Shown here in pieces: positions 1 to 9,400 of a DNA stretch of 64,000 bases (its first letter is position 1; the number at the start of each line of letters is the position of its first letter). Under the pieces are notes generated by a model that saw only the letters and a list, made by a program, of their open reading frames with translations, ran no database searches and was not told the DNA's origin. The position numbers and the translations under genes are program-made. This DNA comes from Dakarella massiliensis (lineage in GTDB: Bacteria > Pseudomonadota > Gammaproteobacteria > Burkholderiales > Burkholderiaceae_F), in contig NZ_CVTY01000006.1 of the NCBI RefSeq assembly GCF_001182045.1, forward strand, positions 356,086 through 420,085. The letters run 5' to 3'.

Positions 1-321
1 CCGCGTCCTTCACAGCCGCGAGAAAGCCTTTCGACGAGAACGTAGCGCCTGAAATGGCGTCGAGATCCGTGGAATTCGTTTTGACAACGTTGTCTTTAAG
101 ATCTGTAAAGACCTTCTCCGCGAGAACCGGGTTCTCGTTCTGAGAGAGAACCTTGATTGACTGGATCTTATTTGCGTCAAAGGTCACCTGAACCTTGATA
201 TCGCCGTCCTTCCCAACACCGGTGCCGGTCGTGGTTACGGCCGCGGCGGACGCCTGGAAAGAAAAGGCTCCGATCACGGCCGCCATCACGGCGGCAAAAC
301 GAATGGATTTGGTATTCATCA
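1..321 (-). CDS. Partial (5' portion only; gene continues upstream of window) secreted FMN-binding-domain protein, probably the N-terminus of a flavocytochrome/fumarate-reductase-family flavoprotein
   Basis: Minus-strand translation MNTKSIRFAAVMAAVIGAFSFQASAAA...ISGATFSSKGFLAAVKDA shows a signal peptide plus the SGAT.SS FMN-binding motif, the same architecture as the N-terminus of the 19984..21924 flavoprotein. Confidence 0.55.
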
Positions 322-607
322 CGCTGCTTCTCCCCTCAAACCTGTCAAATTGACTTGTCAATTTTTGATTGCAACGTCATTAAAAGACAGTTAACCGCCT
401 AAGTCAATATCCTTATCTCTTTAGTGATAGAGGTAAATCGAAACAAAACGTGTTTGGGAGAATGAACTGTGCTTTTTCCTGACAGAATGGGGGATAGAGA
501 GCTCTCTGGAATCCACGGGAAATCAGCGGTTTCTGCGGAGTGGATCCGGGTGCCCCGGCTCAGAAACCATTACTGTGACGCGGATGAATGAAAGGGAGGA
601 TCCCGTG

Positions 608-1066
608 ATGACAGCCTGTGAGAAAGCGATCCGGTACCTGCTCGCCAAAATGGATGAGGAGGCGGGGGATGTCATGACGCTTCCGGTGCTTCAGAAACTC
701 CTCTATTACAGTCAGGGATTTTCTTTGGCGATTACCGGAAAGCCGCTTTTCGAAGAGGATTTCGAGGTGTGGCAGATGGGACCAGTGATTCCGGCGCTTT
801 ATGAGAAATATGGGAAAGAGCCGGCGTTCGGGATTCTGAACCCCTCGGAGACCGGAGACCCGGGACTCACGGAGGAGGAGAAGGATGTGCTTGATCAGGT
901 GTATTTCGTCTATGGGCAGTTTTCCGGGTGGAAACTGAGAGACCTGGTTCTCGCGGATCCATTGATCGCCGGGGCTCCGATCCGGTCCGTGATTCCGAAA
1001 GCCGCGATGAGAGACGCGTTTCTCGCGAGGCTCGAGGTGAGCGGCGCGTACGAGGCGGATTTCTAG
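608..1066 (+). CDS. Panacea-domain (DUF4065, SocA/GepA-like) antitoxin-like protein
   Basis: LQKLLYYSQGFSLAITGKPLFEEDFEVWQMGPVIPALYEKYG matches the Panacea/DUF4065 core. A GGGAGGA SD lies 5 nt upstream of the GTG/ATG at 605/608. The ORF-track start at 575 is probably too long. Confidence 0.6.
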   Translation: MTACEKAIRYLLAKMDEEAGDVMTLPVLQKLLYYSQGFSLAITGKPLFEEDFEVWQMGPVIPALYEKYGKEPAFGILNPSETGDPGLTEEEKDVLDQVYFVYGQFSGWKLRDLVLADPLIAGAPIRSVIPKAAMRDAFLARLEVSGAYEADF

Positions 1067-1141
1067 AGCGAGAGGAAAAGACCGCCAAACGCCCTAAAAT
1101 AGGCACTTTCAGCATCCGGTATTCATCAGGGCAATCCATCT

Positions 1142-2317
1142 ATGGCAGCAGATAACGCTTTTTCATTCGCGATCGTGACGGCGTCCCCGAAGGGGCGCAT
1201 GCTGGAACGGATGCTGGCGAAAGTCCTTAATTGCTATAAGTTCGTCTGGCTTCTTTCTATTCTCAAAATCGTCTCCGGGAAAAAGCGCGAATACATTTCT
1301 TTCAAAGAAATGTCAGCGCGAATGATAGCCACAGCCTGGTATCCGGTTATTTACTTTCGGCTTAACCTCGGATATGCGGACAGCCTGGCCGATGCTATTC
1401 ACGATGTGAAAGCCGAGTGCGGCCTCCCCGATGGCGCGAAGTATGATGAAATTGTGCGGGCTGTTATGGCAATAAAAAATGAAAAGCTGGCTGCCCAGAT
1501 AGAAGAGCTGACAGAATATGTTTGCCCGCGTTTCATCGTGCCTGTTTTCAGTGATGAGCTCGAGGAATTTAGAAAAACCTGCGGGAGCAATAGTAAGTTT
1601 GATGCGGGAAAGAACAGGACCGTTAAGGAACTCAGTCAGAAAGAGTGGAACAGACTTCGGACACCCTACGTGATTGGAGACGAGGGCATCACGCTGACCC
1701 CGGAATGGACGCAGTTCTTCCACGATTTCAACCAGATTATTGCGGAAAGCACGTACTTCAAGCTCACTCAGTACATTCAGCGTCGGAATCCCAGTGTTCC
1801 CGCCATCTCTGAAAAGTTGATTCAGCCGACAAAGCGCAGCAGTCCGGAATTTGATAAGGCGCGGGATTACTGGAGCCTGGTGATTGATAAGAATCCGGAC
1901 GTGTATGACATTTACACCATGCGTCACTTCACAAAGGACGCACTTGATAGCCTGGGGCCGATGTCTGTTGACCACTTTGTCCCCTGGAAGTTCGTGCTGC
2001 ATGACCAGATCTGGAATTTGGTTCCTACGTTCAGGAGCCCAAACAGCAGCAAAAGCGACAACCTCCCGGACTTCGCCTACCTGGATGACTTTTGCTCGGT
2101 GCAGTTCCTCGGTCTTTCAACGATTCGCCGCACTAACCAATTCTCTCATCTGATCGAGGCCTATCGGGATGTGATACCCGACGCGGAAAAGTTTGTGGCG
2201 ATTCTCGAAAACAAAGACGTGTTCAGCCTGCAGTTAAAGAACGCCATTATTCCGCTGCTGCTTCAGGCAAAAAATCAAGGCTTCTCCGACTGGAACAATT
2301 CATACCGGGAAATTTAG
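1142..2317 (+). CDS. HNH/His-Me-finger nuclease-motif protein (DUF1524-like C-terminal motif) with unknown N-terminal domain; candidate toxin partner of the upstream Panacea gene
   Basis: C-terminal VDHFVPWKF...DQIWNLVPTFRSPNSSKSDNLP fits the D-H...N...N..K His-Me finger pattern. It lies 75 bp downstream of the Panacea gene and has lower GC (about 49%) than its neighbours. Confidence 0.5.
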   Translation: MAADNAFSFAIVTASPKGRMLERMLAKVLNCYKFVWLLSILKIVSGKKREYISFKEMSARMIATAWYPVIYFRLNLGYADSLADAIHDVKAECGLPDGAKYDEIVRAVMAIKNEKLAAQIEELTEYVCPRFIVPVFSDELEEFRKTCGSNSKFDAGKNRTVKELSQKEWNRLRTPYVIGDEGITLTPEWTQFFHDFNQIIAESTYFKLTQYIQRRNPSVPAISEKLIQPTKRSSPEFDKARDYWSLVIDKNPDVYDIYTMRHFTKDALDSLGPMSVDHFVPWKFVLHDQIWNLVPTFRSPNSSKSDNLPDFAYLDDFCSVQFLGLSTIRRTNQFSHLIEAYRDVIPDAEKFVAILENKDVFSLQLKNAIIPLLLQAKNQGFSDWNNSYREI

Positions 2318-2598
2318 AGCGGACCCGAGGCATAAACCATCCATAAACTGACGGAAATCTAATTACAGGTGGGTCAGATCCTGTCCGCAAGATGATTGGG
2401 GATGCCAATTCACTAGGCAGATGTGCCAGCATCAATGACTGAGGAAGTCAGTGGAATTCTCTGCCCGGTAGTTCTGGCGCGAAGATAGTCTCTAAGCCTG
2501 ATTTATGGGTTTATTCGGAGGCTCACTTACGTAGGTTGTCAGAGCCTGATGACCCTTTCGGCGGGGAACCGTAGATAACGTCACCAGGCTCTGCCAGG

Positions 2599-3228
2599 TT
2601 ACGAGGCTTGTTCGGGACCAGTCACCGGCTTAGCGATAGCACTCTTCTCTTTGATCCAATTGGTCACGATATCCGGGTCAGCAAGGAACTCGGCGAGCGG
2701 CCAATGCTTGGAGCAGAACTCAAATTGAGGACATTTGCCACTTTGCTGCCAATCAGGTTGAAGAGGGGGCCTGTCAGCTTCTTTAACCATTTTCCAGTCG
2801 CTTTCCTGCAGGCAACGGTACAGATTGACTTCAACCACTGCCTCCTTGCCAGACATTTCCAAAGGATCGGGCTTGGTATTCTTACCTGCACACAAGTCTG
2901 AGTCACTGCGGAAATCGTAGTCGATATAGTTGCGTAAAATCAGCGCTTTATCGCCTTTGATAGCCTTGTTGTGTGTCTTGTCCCGGTAAGCATGAGTCGA
3001 AGCAAATAGCGGCAGATAGTCCCATGCCGAAGTGTCGGATGGGGGGTATGTATCGCGGGGAGGGGTGTAAGTTTCGGTGGGCTTCCAGTACCAGAACTCG
3101 GTGTACAGCGTCTGATAGGCGATCGTATCGAATAGCGGGAGGATACGCATGTAGAAAGCGGCCGCGAGTCTGTGGGCCTGCTGCAGCTGGGTAACCAGCT
3201 TGGTGGTTTGCTGAAGATCGTATGTCAT
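2599..3228 (-). CDS. Hypothetical protein, downstream partner of the NERD-like nuclease gene
   Basis: Uninterrupted ORF. The likely ATG (MTYDLQQ...) is preceded by AAGGA. Its start is 2 bp from the stop of the upstream gene, so the two are translationally coupled. No recognisable motifs. Confidence 0.45.
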   Translation of the reverse strand: MTYDLQQTTKLVTQLQQAHRLAAAFYMRILPLFDTIAYQTLYTEFWYWKPTETYTPPRDTYPPSDTSAWDYLPLFASTHAYRDKTHNKAIKGDKALILRNYIDYDFRSDSDLCAGKNTKPDPLEMSGKEAVVEVNLYRCLQESDWKMVKEADRPPLQPDWQQSGKCPQFEFCSKHWPLAEFLADPDIVTNWIKEKSAIAKPVTGPEQAS

Positions 3229-3248
3229 AGCGGCATCCTTATCCAAAG

Positions 3249-4064
3249 TCAGTGATTCAAAAAGGAGAAATCGTGGGAGGAGAGGCGCAATGTCCCGGCA
3301 TACTTAAGCAGCGCGGTCCAGCCAGCAGTGTGTTCAGCCGGTGAGGTCATTTCCCATCCTGATATCACCCCGCAATCCAAGTGCACCTTTTTTTCTGCGG
3401 GGTAGTCAAACAAGAGCTTCCACTCGGGTATTACTGGTGCCATACCAAAGAGCTCAAATGCCCGCATCCACTCTTCGCGAATGGCGCGATCCTGTCGGCA
3501 GGAGTCAAACTCGGGGGCGGTTTGCAGGAAGTGGCGGAGCGATCCCCATTCACGCAGTGTCATTTGGCGAAAACGTTCGGGCAGCTCCGGATGAGTCAGC
3601 GGGGCGGCAGGAGTATGGCCGAGCGCCACATAGTAGAGCCGGTCTCCATAGGTCTTAACGTCGGTATTGCTAACCACAGCATCGACCTGGTCCTTCCACT
3701 GGTCCTGATGCTGGTCGCCCCCGAACGGGGGCTTGACCTCGATAACCACCAATGAGTTTTTAAACCGAAGTATCACATCGGGCTCAACATGTTTAGGCTC
3801 CTTTTCGGGGTCAGCATGTTCAGGCTTCAATTCCAGGTATGGCCACAGCTCCAGCTTGTCAAAGGTGGAAGGATCAATCGGATTGTCGGCACCAAGCAGG
3901 AAGCGCAGCAGGGCACCCAGAGCGCTGTCAGAGAGGTAGGGCACACGTCCAAAAAAGACGGCAGTCAGCAGATCCTCGCTTCGTTTGAACGCGTCACGCC
4001 AGCTGATAGATTCCTCGTCCTGCTCGATACGGCCAGCCTTGCCATGCAGAATCGCCTGCAGCAT
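3249..4064 (-). CDS. NERD / PD-(D/E)xK nuclease-like protein
   Basis: EPDVILRFKNSLVVIEVKPPFGG is a classic PD...(D/E)xK / NERD signature. The start is set at MLQAILH, with AGGAG 5 nt upstream. Confidence 0.45.
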   Translation of the reverse strand: MLQAILHGKAGRIEQDEESISWRDAFKRSEDLLTAVFFGRVPYLSDSALGALLRFLLGADNPIDPSTFDKLELWPYLELKPEHADPEKEPKHVEPDVILRFKNSLVVIEVKPPFGGDQHQDQWKDQVDAVVSNTDVKTYGDRLYYVALGHTPAAPLTHPELPERFRQMTLREWGSLRHFLQTAPEFDSCRQDRAIREEWMRAFELFGMAPVIPEWKLLFDYPAEKKVHLDCGVISGWEMTSPAEHTAGWTALLKYAGTLRLSSHDFSFLNH

Positions 4065-4660
4065 CGCAGCTCCTCGTGATGTTGATAGTCCTCGTGAACC
4101 GATTTCAGGGCTTCCAGAGCGTTCACGAGTGAAAATCAAGTATGTAAAAAGAGTACGTAAAGAGTCTACTCGCCCGTCATTTATGAATCAAGGTAAATCG
4201 GTTCAAAGAACGGGTCAATTTATGGCCGCGGCAGAAACGGCATGGGAAGAGAGGTGCCGGGTACGAAGGATCCGGACAGCAGAAAACCGCCTCATGACGC
4301 ATAGTCATGCGGAGAATGGCATTGGCTCAAGGGAGTCGAAGACAACAGCTCGCAATCGAAGCTCTGTCTCTTTTTGATTCAGACGGGGGACATCCGGAAT
4401 CGCGCGCATGGATTCAGGGGTGCCGCGGGTCTTTTTTGAAACGCGCTTATCAGGTTCGGTGCCTGATGAAGCGGTAAAGCGGAAAACGTGTGAAGCGTAA
4501 ATCTTAGAAGGAAGTAACGAGGGAACTCTTAAGTTTTGTGCCGTTCCCTCTACGCCATGAAGATCGCTTCAAGGCTGAGGCACATTCGGAAATCGATCGT
4601 TTTACTGTGACACTTCATTTTGGCTGCTCCTATTTACGAAAGTCTCTTGTCGATCCGGTC

Positions 4661-4906
4661 TTAGATGCAGACACCGGAGAGGAGGCTCAGAACGTCGATA
4701 CCCTGGCGGGTCTTGCGGGGAGCGGCGGCCTGTTCGTGGGTCTGGGAGGCGAAGGTGCTCTTCGTCTGGGTTTCCGCCTTGGTGAGGGTGACGGAGCCGT
4801 CGGCCGCGATGCGGAACTCAAGCTGGTTGCCGCTCGCGAGATTCAGGAAATCGCGGATTTCCTTCGGAATAGTGACCTGACCCTTGATAGTAAGACGATT
4901 TGCCAT
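4661..4906 (-). CDS. AbrB/MazE/SpoVT-family antitoxin-like DNA-binding protein (orphan)
   Basis: N-terminal MANRLTIKGQVTIPKEIRDFL is the swapped-hairpin AbrB/MazE motif. No toxin ORF of at least 60 aa lies downstream. Confidence 0.55.
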   Translation of the reverse strand: MANRLTIKGQVTIPKEIRDFLNLASGNQLEFRIAADGSVTLTKAETQTKSTFASQTHEQAAAPRKTRQGIDVLSLLSGVCI

Positions 4907-4935
4907 TTTATTTCTTCCCTTTCGATTTACACGTA

Positions 4936-4977
4936 TAAAAAAAGACAGAGCCGCAATTTTGTTTGCGGCTCTGTCTA
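4936..4977 (-). terminator. Rho-independent terminator (minus strand), likely the thiC 3' end
   Basis: On the minus strand, a GACAGAGCCGCA / TGCGGCTCTGTC 12-bp stem is followed by TTTTTTT. Confidence 0.5.
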
Positions 4978-5221
4978 AGTTGAATCTCTGTTCTGCGGAA
5001 CTTATCTTTCTAACGGGTGTGCAGAACGAGACGCCTTAGCTCTGGAGAGCCGCGTCAGTCGCATGCACATGCTGTCAACGATGAACAGCTGGTTAGACAT
5101 TTGGAAAAGTTCCTGTAACAAGTAAAAACGTATAAGTAACCTTACCCGAGCAATTTTGAAAAGTCAAAATTTTGATTTCGGATAAGGTTTTTGTCGTAGA
5201 GACTCTAAGGAAAAGCGCCCA

Positions 5222-7096
<1,875 letters not shown>

Positions 7097-7224
7097 TTAT
7101 AGGCGGCGAGAAAGACGGAGGGAATAACAGCCGGTATGCAGGGTGGGGTCTTGAGACGTCTCTCAAAAAGAACGCCTTCCGGGAGTTCTCTTAATTCCGG
7201 AAAGCGTCCCGGCTCCCGCACCGC

Positions 7225-7332
7225 TGCATATTCGTTTCCCTCCGACGGTATCAGCCGCATCAGGTTCCACGGGTGTTTCTCAATCAGGAACGCGTTTTAG
7301 TGACAGGCCGCGTGCCCTGATACCCCGAACGT
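7225..7332 (-). ncRNA. TPP (THI-box) riboswitch controlling thiC
   Basis: Minus-strand RNA CGGGGUAUCAGGGCACG...UUGAGAAACACCCGUGGAACCUGAUGCGGCUGAUACCGUCGGAGGGAAACG matches the THI element core (CUGAGA...ACCC...AACCUGAU..GG.UAAUACC.GCG.AGGGAA). Confidence 0.75.
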
Positions 7333-7385
7333 GCGCACCATTCTAAACGGGGTTGAGATCCGAGAGGAGGGGAGGAAACGAAGTT

Positions 7386-8069
7386 TTACTCGTTTCGCCG
7401 CGAGACGAGCCGCCTGATCGAGCGGTCGTGAATCCCGGTGAGGAAGAGCATCGAGAAAACCGCGCCCACGAGGCACCACGCCATGTCTTTCTGCGTGTCC
7501 CAGGGGTCGCCCTGCGTGCCGAGGAACGCGTCCGCTTCCTCGTGAATGATTTCGGCGGTTGCCCACTCGAAGATTTCGTAGAGCGCGGCGATCGAGAGAC
7601 ACACCGTAATCGAGAAAAACGCGGCCCAGGCTTTAGAGCGGGCGGCGCGCGTCCGGAGGATGATTTCGCGCGCGATGATCGCGGGGAACGCCCCTTGAGC
7701 GAAGTGACCAACCTTGTCGTAATTGTTCCGCGCGAAGTGAAGCGGTCCCTCAAGCCACGTGAAGAGCGGGACTTCCGCGTACGTGTACTTCGCGCCAATA
7801 AAGAGGATCACGCAGTGGATCGCGATGAGCGCGTAGCAGAAGCGAGAGAAGCGGAATTTCCCCCAGGTGAGGGCAAGGAGCGCGAAGCCAATCAGCCCCG
7901 GCGTGCATTCGAGCCACCAGGTGAGTCGGTCATGCGGATTGATGCCGGACCAGACGAGCACGGCGAGCCAGATGGCGAGCAGCACCGCGTGGAACGTCGA
8001 AAACCGTTCCCCCATTCCTTTTTCGTACCAATCCATAAGCCGGACTCCTTTTCCGTCGAATCGTATCAC
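7386..8069 (-). CDS. Polytopic inner-membrane protein (DUF2238/YjdF-like, tentative)
   Basis: Several hydrophobic helices. The family assignment is from memory only. Confidence 0.4.
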   Translation of the reverse strand: MIRFDGKGVRLMDWYEKGMGERFSTFHAVLLAIWLAVLVWSGINPHDRLTWWLECTPGLIGFALLALTWGKFRFSRFCYALIAIHCVILFIGAKYTYAEVPLFTWLEGPLHFARNNYDKVGHFAQGAFPAIIAREIILRTRAARSKAWAAFFSITVCLSIAALYEIFEWATAEIIHEEADAFLGTQGDPWDTQKDMAWCLVGAVFSMLFLTGIHDRSIRRLVSRRNE

Positions 8070-8146
8070 GGGAAAGAAGCGCCGGCACGGGGAATCGCAG
8101 CGCGGTGTGCTCTTTAGACCCTTAAAATCCGGGTCTTTTCGGAACT

Positions 8147-9400
8147 TTACGCGGAAGCGCCCTTCGGGACGTCACGCCACCAGGCGGGGAACTCGATCGT
8201 TAGATCGCCGATCGGCACCACGTCCCCGACTTTCGGCGTGAGGAGCTTCCAGTCCGCGAGGTGAGAGGCCATCCGGAACCGCTCCAGCGGATCAAACCAG
8301 GCGTGCCGCGCGAGCGCGTAGCGGCAGTTGTGGATCGGGATCACGGATTTCGCGCCGACCTCGGTCGCGGCTTTGACGGATCCTTCCGGTGCCATATGAA
8401 TTTCCGCCCAGTCCGCGTTGTACTGGCCGTCCTCGATAAATGCGAGGTCGAAGCCCCCGGAATCGCGGAAGAGGTCGCCGATTTCCTTGAAGTGCGAACC
8501 GTTTCCGCCGTCCCCTGAGAGGTAAAGGCGCTTTCCGCCCGCCTCAATCACGTAAGACCCCCAGAGCGTCTGATCGCGCTTCAGCGTCCGCCCTGAGAAG
8601 TGGCGGGATGGGAAGAAGTAGATCGCGGGGGCCTGAAGAGCGCCGGACTTCCATTCAGCCGGCTGCAGACGCTTTTCCGGTTTATGGAACGGATGCAGCA
8701 CCTCAGGCTTCGGATCCGTGAACCGCGCGGCGTCGTACCAGTCGAAAACGAGGATCTTATCGGGGTTAATGCCCCAGGCGAGAAGATGCGAATTCACGCC
8801 AAGCGGCACCGCGTAGCGCTTCACCTTGTGGTCCAGCGCCTTGATCGTCTCGCAGTCGAGGTGATCCCAGTGGTCGTGCGTGAGGATCAGGAGGTCGATC
8901 GGAGGCGTGGTCTTCGCGGTAAAGGGATAGCCGCCCCGGAACTCAAAGCTTTTATTCACGAATGAGACCGGAGAGGCGTACGCCGAATACACCTGATCCA
9001 CGAGGAACCGGAGACCGGCGAGCTGGAAATAGAGCCCCGAGTGCCCGAGCCACACCGCGATATCGCGGTTCGGGTCGAGTTTTGAGAGATCGGTGTGCGT
9101 GCAGGGCAGCGGCGCTGCGGGTTTCAGATCCGGGATGGAGTTTGTGAGAAACTTCCACCAGGCCTCAATAAACCCGTCCTTCCCGACCATGACAGACGTC
9201 GGCTGCTGGTTACGGAATTCCCCGTCGATCCAGTTGGGGGATGTATGGATACTCTCCGCGAGCTTTCCCTCAGGGATCTCGCCAAAGCGGTTCACGAAGG
9301 AGCAGCCGGGCGTCATCACGACGGCTCCCGCGATCGCGCCGCCGAAGAGCGCCCGGCGCGTGCATTTCGCGACGGGACTCTGTTTAAACGGTTCATGCAT
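8147..9400 (-). CDS. Tat-exported MBL-fold metallo-hydrolase
   Basis: TRRALFGGAIAGA twin-arginine signal and the LTHDHWDHLD metallo-beta-lactamase motif. Confidence 0.8.
   Translation of the reverse strand: MHEPFKQSPVAKCTRRALFGGAIAGAVVMTPGCSFVNRFGEIPEGKLAESIHTSPNWIDGEFRNQQPTSVMVGKDGFIEAWWKFLTNSIPDLKPAAPLPCTHTDLSKLDPNRDIAVWLGHSGLYFQLAGLRFLVDQVYSAYASPVSFVNKSFEFRGGYPFTAKTTPPIDLLILTHDHWDHLDCETIKALDHKVKRYAVPLGVNSHLLAWGINPDKILVFDWYDAARFTDPKPEVLHPFHKPEKRLQPAEWKSGALQAPAIYFFPSRHFSGRTLKRDQTLWGSYVIEAGGKRLYLSGDGGNGSHFKEIGDLFRDSGGFDLAFIEDGQYNADWAEIHMAPEGSVKAATEVGAKSVIPIHNCRYALARHAWFDPLERFRMASHLADWKLLTPKVGDVVPIGDLTIEFPAWWRDVPKGASA

Follow-up and report, generated by a model that had tools for sequence, protein, structure and literature searches.

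A PDC-M15 gene pair in Dakarella massiliensis: a predicted PD-(D/E)xK nuclease and its non-enzymatic partner as a candidate anti-phage module

The window analysed here, a 64-kb stretch of the genome of Dakarella massiliensis (Sutterellaceae), carries on its minus strand two consecutive, co-oriented open reading frames (ORFs), which extend from TTG codons over 3249-4139 and 2599-3246 at their maximum and which a first-pass annotation, made from the sequence alone, had rightly paired; we call the genes A and B. In the long forms of the A and B ORFs the profiles of the defence-system collection PADLOC set in only at residues 26 and 7, respectively, alignments of A and B homologues begin at the same internal methionines, and public gene calls give 271 and 209 amino acids on all examined contigs with identical proteins. 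We therefore place gene A (PDC-M15A; WP_022444355.1) at 3249-4064 on the minus strand, from ATG 4064 through its TGA stop at 3251-3249 (271 amino acids), and gene B (PDC-M15B; WP_022444356.1; Pfam PF27385 'PM0109') at 2599-3228 on the same strand (209 amino acids), the real start of B most likely being ATG 3228 and not the in-frame TTG 3246. Ribosome-binding sites can be read directly from the sequence ahead of both: GAGGAG at 4071-4076 (minus strand), 6 nt upstream of the A start, and AAGGA at 3236-3240 (minus strand), 7 nt upstream of the B start and within the 20-nt spacer (3229-3248) between the genes. The 2-bp interval from which translational coupling had initially been read applies only to the TTG codon; in most other loci, however, the two genes overlap by 4-10 nt, so that close coupling characterises the family even though the 2-bp spacing in the window is not upheld. 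Both database records are annotated 'hypothetical protein'.

Searches against defence-system profile hidden Markov models (HMMs), a check that the first-pass annotation had itself proposed, place the two proteins in a catalogued family. Protein A matches the PADLOC PDC-M15A model PDLC04456 over its entire length (E 2.6e-100, profile positions 1-260 of 260) and four further PDC-M15A models; protein B matches the PDC-M15B model PDLC04466 almost end to end (E 7e-86, positions 1-198 of 200) and eight further PDC-M15B models. The arrangement is also that of the family, with A then B, adjacent and co-oriented, both in the window and in 30 other loci. PDC systems are 145 untested 'guilt-by-embedding' candidates drawn from BREX, DISARM and Type I restriction-modification (R-M) loci (Payne et al., bioRxiv 10.1101/2024.01.29.577857), among which PDC-M15 is listed as cassette CAS_00081 (FAM_00087>>FAM_00103, count 241, 'Assign as candidate PDC-M15'; supplementary table of the same preprint); the candidates tested in that study were HEC-01 to HEC-09 only. 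Judged by these matches, the Dakarella pair belongs to a candidate family catalogued in 2023-24 and is neither new to databases nor a new kind of system, and a specialist running PADLOC would already be able to flag the locus. Nothing in membership sets it apart, with full-length HMM matches in the same order and orientation and with the Type I R-M embedding of the family independently reproduced in other genomes; the Dakarella copy differs in standing alone, outside any R-M operon.

Gene A is a real gene, with a homologue family of 120 clusters. The protein contains the string HVEPDVILRFKNSLVVIEVKPPFGG, and the nuclease signature seen at first pass (EPDVIL...VVIEVK) stands, its EPD and ExK residues being invariant in an alignment of 62 homologues of 27-81% identity. 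The full set of residues conserved in 62 of 62 comprises M1, L2, A4, K9, W22, R23, E30, D31, L32, L33, R40 and W74 in the first part of the protein and E94, P95, D96, E109, K111, Q118, Q122, W123, L148, G149, W173, A202 and F203 in the second. Codons for residues 94-111, EPDVILRFKNSLVVIEVK, which the alignment and the structural model together mark as the catalytic D...ExK motif, occupy 3732-3785 on the minus strand. As had been remarked, A is otherwise unrecognisable: neither Pfam nor NCBIfam nor PDB sequences yielded a match, single-sequence and profile searches of the PDB returning only insignificant alignments (E >= 0.5).

An AlphaFold2 model of A (predicted local distance difference test (pLDDT) 85.6; predicted template modelling score (pTM) 0.77) bears out the expectation that the motif folds into a PD-(D/E)xK core. 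D96 lies directly before a strand at residues 97-101, E109 lies inside a strand at 105-110 with K111 directly after it, and a helix at 120-132 bears Q122 and W123, with Q118 just before it; in the model this placement is the canonical core arrangement of the superfamily. The D...(D/E)xK residues sit on consecutive strands, acidic residues (E30 and D31) lie upstream, and the modelled topology is the alpha-beta-beta-beta-alpha-beta of the restriction-endonuclease-like fold. We thus predict that A is a PD-(D/E)xK nuclease with an intact and strictly conserved catalytic signature. Its original label of NERD nuclease, by contrast, does not hold at Pfam thresholds: among the 62 homologues, sub-threshold Pfam matches are to NERD in three (best E 0.0096), to RE_AlwI in one and to AHJR-like in one, and the window protein itself has no NERD match even at E <= 1, so that membership of NERD (PF08378) was rejected. 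NERD proteins such as HEC-02, in which an ATPase is joined to NERD, share the PD-(D/E)xK superfamily with A but differ from the pair in that ATPase, no ATPase motif or domain having been found in either gene by Pfam, NCBIfam or PADLOC searches.

The structural neighbours of the A model (tabulated values in brackets) are N.BspD6I (7.6), FokI (6.7), AF1548 (6.7), McrC (6.6), NucS (6.4), the R.BspD6I small subunit (6.4), Hna (6.0), Upx (5.9), Shedu SduA (5.8) and Can2/Card1 (5.2-5.6). By model comparison the nearest of them are non-specific cleavage modules, namely the cleavage domains of FokI and of N.BspD6I/R.BspD6I, McrC and NucS; the likeness to the nuclease domains of Shedu (SduA), Hna, Upx and Can2/Card1 holds at the superfamily level only, their architectures and partners being different. 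Sequence identity of A to the FokI cleavage domain and to the heterodimeric Type IIS enzyme R.BspD6I (the nickase N.BspD6I plus a small subunit) is about 9%, and A differs from both in having additional conserved regions, an N-terminal one (MLxAILxGKAGR) and a C-terminal helical one.

Gene B is likewise a real gene: when 1.84 billion representative proteins were searched with its profile, 858 clusters at 50% identity matched (E <= 1e-3), nearly all of them stand-alone proteins of about 200 amino acids. No match was found in local copies of Pfam or NCBIfam, nor among PDB sequences; homologues of B are, however, placed by precomputed annotation in a more recent Pfam family, PF27385 ('PM0109'), a name for which a literature search found nothing relevant. 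The protein had been described as rich in Trp, Tyr and Pro, which is true only to a moderate degree (W 3.3%, Y 5.7%, P 8.1%). An alignment of 66 diverse members shows A18, W48, W69, P73 and D103 to be invariant and contains no catalytic-looking motif. The AlphaFold2 model (pLDDT 88.3) predicts a helix-plus-sheet fold, consistent with a non-enzymatic alpha+beta partner, that resembles only protein-binding scaffolds—CCDC47, Med17C, actin-capping protein alpha and YbjN-like proteins, together with the type III secretion chaperones AvrPphF ORF1, SycN, ExsC, ShcA and SicP. A Foldseek comparison with viral structures gave none at E <= 0.001, and PDB sequence and profile searches found no solved structure for either the A or the B family.

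Conservation of the two genes as neighbours, on which the first-pass reading of a functional pair depended, is complete in the loci we collected. A pattern scan of one genome per species gave 25 loci with an A homologue, and all 25 have a B homologue downstream on the same strand; in four distant loci found through B (Kaistia, a metagenome-assembled genome (MAG) and Saprospiraceae), an A protein with the ED...EPD...ExK...QW pattern lies directly upstream in each case; and the same order recurs on a Vibrio rumoiensis plasmid, these being the 30 loci beyond the window. Pairwise identities of A and B are correlated over 22 intact loci (Mantel r = 0.88, a value reached in 0 of 2000 permutations). 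One lineage has joined the genes outright: P0309, a single polypeptide of 459 amino acids, is a natural head-to-tail fusion in which hhalign assigns residues 1-218 to the A profile with 99.7% probability and residues 249-451 to the B profile with 99.8%. The fusion gene (locus L031, 1566-2945, and also L032-L034; MAGs GCA_029935755.1 and GCA_030590925.1) is found in identical form on five independent contigs, with neighbours encoding GmrSD_N, HEPN_MAE_28990 and a caspase-like Peptidase_C14. A and B are therefore one unit, always adjacent in A-then-B order, diverging in step and fused in one lineage.

What such a unit might do is suggested by the company that A keeps structurally: its nearest relatives, FokI, the BspD6I heterodimer and McrC, cut only when positioned or dimerised by another subunit or domain, and from this we infer a complex of A and B in which B gates A. 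A would be the DNA-cutting effector and B a regulatory or sensing subunit that licenses or directs A upon a phage-derived cue, probably a phage protein bound at the chaperone-like surface of B; in consequence, either the incoming DNA would be destroyed or the infection would abort. That the pair is a two-gene PDC-M15 module of this kind, acting against phages or other mobile elements, we consider probable, if only just. The anti-phage role proposed at first pass accordingly gains support, for a candidate system, from the independent full-length PDC-M15 match and from the embedding in Type I R-M operons seen in 12 of the 30 other loci. A more specific version is possible but much more tentative: a novel type of two-component immune nuclease in which B, with a fold like that of type III secretion chaperones, senses a phage protein directly, through a sensor fold undescribed in bacterial immunity, and turns on a FokI-like, non-specific A, and which may optionally back up a Type I R-M system that a phage has disabled.

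The same structural neighbours lend themselves to a different division of labour, in which the pair is a methyltransferase-independent restriction enzyme, Type IV-like or split in the manner of FokI and BspD6I, with B recognising the target, for example modified phage DNA, and A cleaving it. Type IIS cleavage modules and McrC, the closest neighbours of A, do rely on a separate recognition domain or subunit; the genes around the pair in the window (Panacea, HNH and AbrB-like genes only) include no DNA methyltransferase; and Type IV enzymes commonly lie beside hsd operons. A conventional Type II or IIS R-M system, which would have its cognate DNA methyltransferase nearby, is not what the locus contains, and relative to R.BspD6I and FokI, B is neither a nuclease nor a protein with a recognisable DNA-binding domain. 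B is moreover acidic throughout its family (isoelectric point 4.5-6.2, median about 5), which argues against the role of a DNA-binding subunit, and A is acidic too. We regard target recognition by B as unlikely.

Natural disruptions of the pair bear on how B relates to A. In Thiothrix (locus L022, 7050-8627) an IS66 insertion sequence (IS), of which the locus has a second, 100% identical copy, splits B and leaves A full-length with all catalytic residues; in Aeromonas sobria (L007) B is frameshifted and A is again full-length with its catalytic residues. In Mesosutterella (L001, 6981-9984) an IS256/Mutator-family element has come to lie between an intact A and an intact B, and in a second copy of the pair in the same genome both genes are decayed. 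Loci in which B is destroyed and A intact argue that B is not simply an antidote; at the level of sequence they suggest that A is tolerated without B, as would be more readily expected if B were an activator, a sensor or a specificity subunit than if it neutralised A.

These disruptions weigh directly on the possibility that the pair is a toxin-antitoxin (TA) or addiction module, in which A would be a DNase toxin held in check by a proteinaceous antitoxin B, the pair would serve mainly to stabilise its carrier, be that the islet or an R-M operon, and any phage defence would be secondary. The tight coupling of the two genes in one operon and the small, acidic product of the second are in keeping with such a module, as are the resemblance of the B fold to chaperone- or immunity-like binders and the TA-like neighbours in the window (Panacea and an AbrB/PrlF-like antitoxin). 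In a Type II TA system, however, the antitoxin is indispensable beside an intact toxin, whereas natural variation at two loci (L022 and L007), though no experiment, presents A with its catalytic residues and no functional B gene; the IS256 element separates the two genes in Mesosutterella with both intact; a fusion of A to B is unusual for a labile antitoxin; B lacks the DNA-binding autoregulatory domain of Type II antitoxins; and the gene order is toxin-first. The classical form of a TA pair we reject on the natural B knock-outs and the fusion, and an addiction module in the broader sense seems improbable to us.

The pair is distributed patchily and moves by horizontal transfer: the Dakarella proteins share 81% identity with those of Mesosutterella and 62-66% with the closest Aeromonas copies, but only about 35% with those of other Betaproteobacteria. 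The B family spans Pseudomonadota, Desulfobacterota and Bacteroidota. A Type I R-M operon contains or adjoins the pair, on the same strand, in 12 of the 30 loci beyond the window, namely on the Vibrio rumoiensis plasmid and in 11 of the 25 A-anchored genome loci. Two layouts recur: hsdM-hsdS-(X)-A-B-hsdR, in some cases with a YgjP/SprT peptidase gene after it, in eight loci from Pseudomonas, Zoogloea, Photobacterium, Shewanella, Vibrio and Lysobacterales (L010, L011, L014, L019, L020, L023, L024 and L035), and hsdR-hsdM-hsdS-(X)-A-B in Aeromonas (L002-L004 and L008). The optional gene X beside the pair encodes AbiD, a ThsA-like SIR2 protein, SoFic or PDC-S18 (NucS_C+DUF5655). The last of these, a 308-amino-acid protein (PDC-S18 at E 4.7e-149 in L010), is encoded before A in L010 (5045-5971) and after B in L011 (7430-8359); a presumed counterpart, an ORF of 308 amino acids, occupies the slot in L024 (3412-4338); and a Shewanella gene of 435 amino acids between hsdS and A (L020, 4090-5397) has no Pfam or PADLOC match. 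Neighbours at the remaining loci include a KAP NTPase, a UvrD/GajB-like helicase together with an MrfA-Zn protein, and IS elements, or are simply housekeeping genes. Type I R-M is not nearby in more than half of the loci, the window included, and obligate dependence of the pair on it was accordingly rejected; neither hsdM nor hsdS nor hsdR occurs anywhere in the 64 kb, where the module stands alone.

This embedding raises a further alternative, by analogy with PrrC and RloC, which are the precedent for a guard of Type I R-M: when anti-restriction proteins of a phage inactivate the Type I R-M of the host, the pair might sense this and release its nuclease. PrrC and RloC are abortive-infection nucleases nested within hsd operons on the same strand, much as, in the 12 loci above, the pair is inserted between hsdS and hsdR or closes the hsd operon, in the same orientation. 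They are, however, single-gene anticodon RNases fused to an ABC ATPase, whereas the pair joins a PD-(D/E)xK protein to a separate partner without ATPase and often occurs without any R-M; in the window there is neither Type I R-M embedding nor an ABC ATPase with an anticodon nuclease. Against a guard there are, besides the loci that lack Type I R-M, the unrelated defence genes that occupy the same hsd slot, which suggests a permissive landing site and not a functional partnership. We hold a guard function to be quite improbable.

A role outside defence seems very improbable, whether in DNA repair or recombination or in a mobile element (where A might, for example, be a nuclease like TnsA or a resolvase and B its accessory protein), for although one UniRef record names an A homologue 'TnsA endonuclease N-terminal domain', A has weak sub-threshold AHJR-like and NucS-like similarities and IS elements are frequent near the pair, no TnsB/C, integrase or terminal-repeat partner is conserved with it, tblastn of A found no match in 50,697 phage records and only 2 among 72,556 plasmids, and accessory immunity accounts better for a pair that is patchily distributed, horizontally transferred and embedded in R-M operons. 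A PHROGs search likewise gave no match, and a TnsA-like transposon nuclease as in Tn7 was rejected for want of partner genes, A having no Pfam match and no TnsB or TnsC neighbour being conserved.

In the window the pair sits in an islet of about 4.6 kb (320-4945, boundaries approximate) between a flavoprotein reductase gene and thiC (5222-7081, minus strand). The first-pass description of lower guanine-plus-cytosine (GC) content is confirmed by the GC profile, with values of 0.47-0.57 over 1-5250 and 0.58-0.64 over 5250-9250 on the thiC side (roughly 50% in the islet and 60% in its flanks), and the Panacea module was correctly placed beside the pair: a Panacea-domain gene (575-1066, plus strand) adjoins it, together with an HNH_4 gene (1142-2317, plus strand; 391 amino acids), both of them convergent with B. 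On the other side lies an orphan AbrB/PrlF/MazE-like antitoxin gene (4661-4906, minus strand; 81 amino acids), which has no cognate toxin in the islet and is not conserved alongside A and B in other genomes; the roughly 600 bp from it to the start of A (4065-4660) hold no long minus-strand ORF, nor did translating this gap in three frames reveal a recognisable trace of a toxin. Downstream of thiC, near the islet edge, lies a terminator-like hairpin (4976-4943, minus strand), and directly upstream of thiC is a thiamine pyrophosphate riboswitch (RF00059; 7220-7337, minus strand; 58.2 bits, above the gathering score), which is ordinary thiamine regulation. A 26-nt imperfect inverted repeat (418-443 and 4920-4945, 77% complementary) roughly brackets the islet; as the ends of an element it was rejected, being too weak at 77% over 26 nt.

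The order of genes in the islet is identical on all examined metagenome contigs that carry the exact A protein, a sequence indexed in 1329 blocks of a public assembly collection, all examined contigs being metagenomic. The thiC-...-A-B-HNH arrangement is also present in Mesosutterella, where an ORF of 389 amino acids lies convergent beside both copies of the pair (L001, 10716-11885, minus strand; L006, 6698-7867, minus strand). Size and position, though not direct comparison, would make these ORFs homologues of the HNH gene; in that case the two modules, A-B and HNH, move jointly within the Sutterellaceae and not in other taxa.

Several observations weigh against the reading of the pair as an infection-gated PDC-M15 defence module. 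Its surroundings in the window are a small islet of TA-like genes and not a classical defence island, and a promoter scan found no sigma-70-like site upstream of A. In the two loci with a broken B, A could be silenced in ways that the sequence does not show. A full-text literature search returned no mention of PDC-M15, and no experimental test of it was found. Candidates of this class also fail in an appreciable share of tests: two of the nine guilt-by-embedding candidates that were tested failed (Payne et al., bioRxiv 10.1101/2024.01.29.577857), as did four of eight others in a later cold-seep study, M15 not being among those eight.

For PDC-M15 we found no earlier description of the active-site signature in A, the fold predicted for B, the fusion of the two proteins or the natural knock-outs of B, which together supply concrete mutants and hypotheses. 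If PDC-M15 is validated, a widespread module, with at least 858 B-family clusters at 50% identity, would join the known bacterial immune systems, and since B has no solved or annotated relative, its principle of sensing or activation might prove novel. The Dakarella copy, which recurs unchanged in well over a thousand public assembly blocks, may shape the phage-host dynamics of a common human gut commensal.

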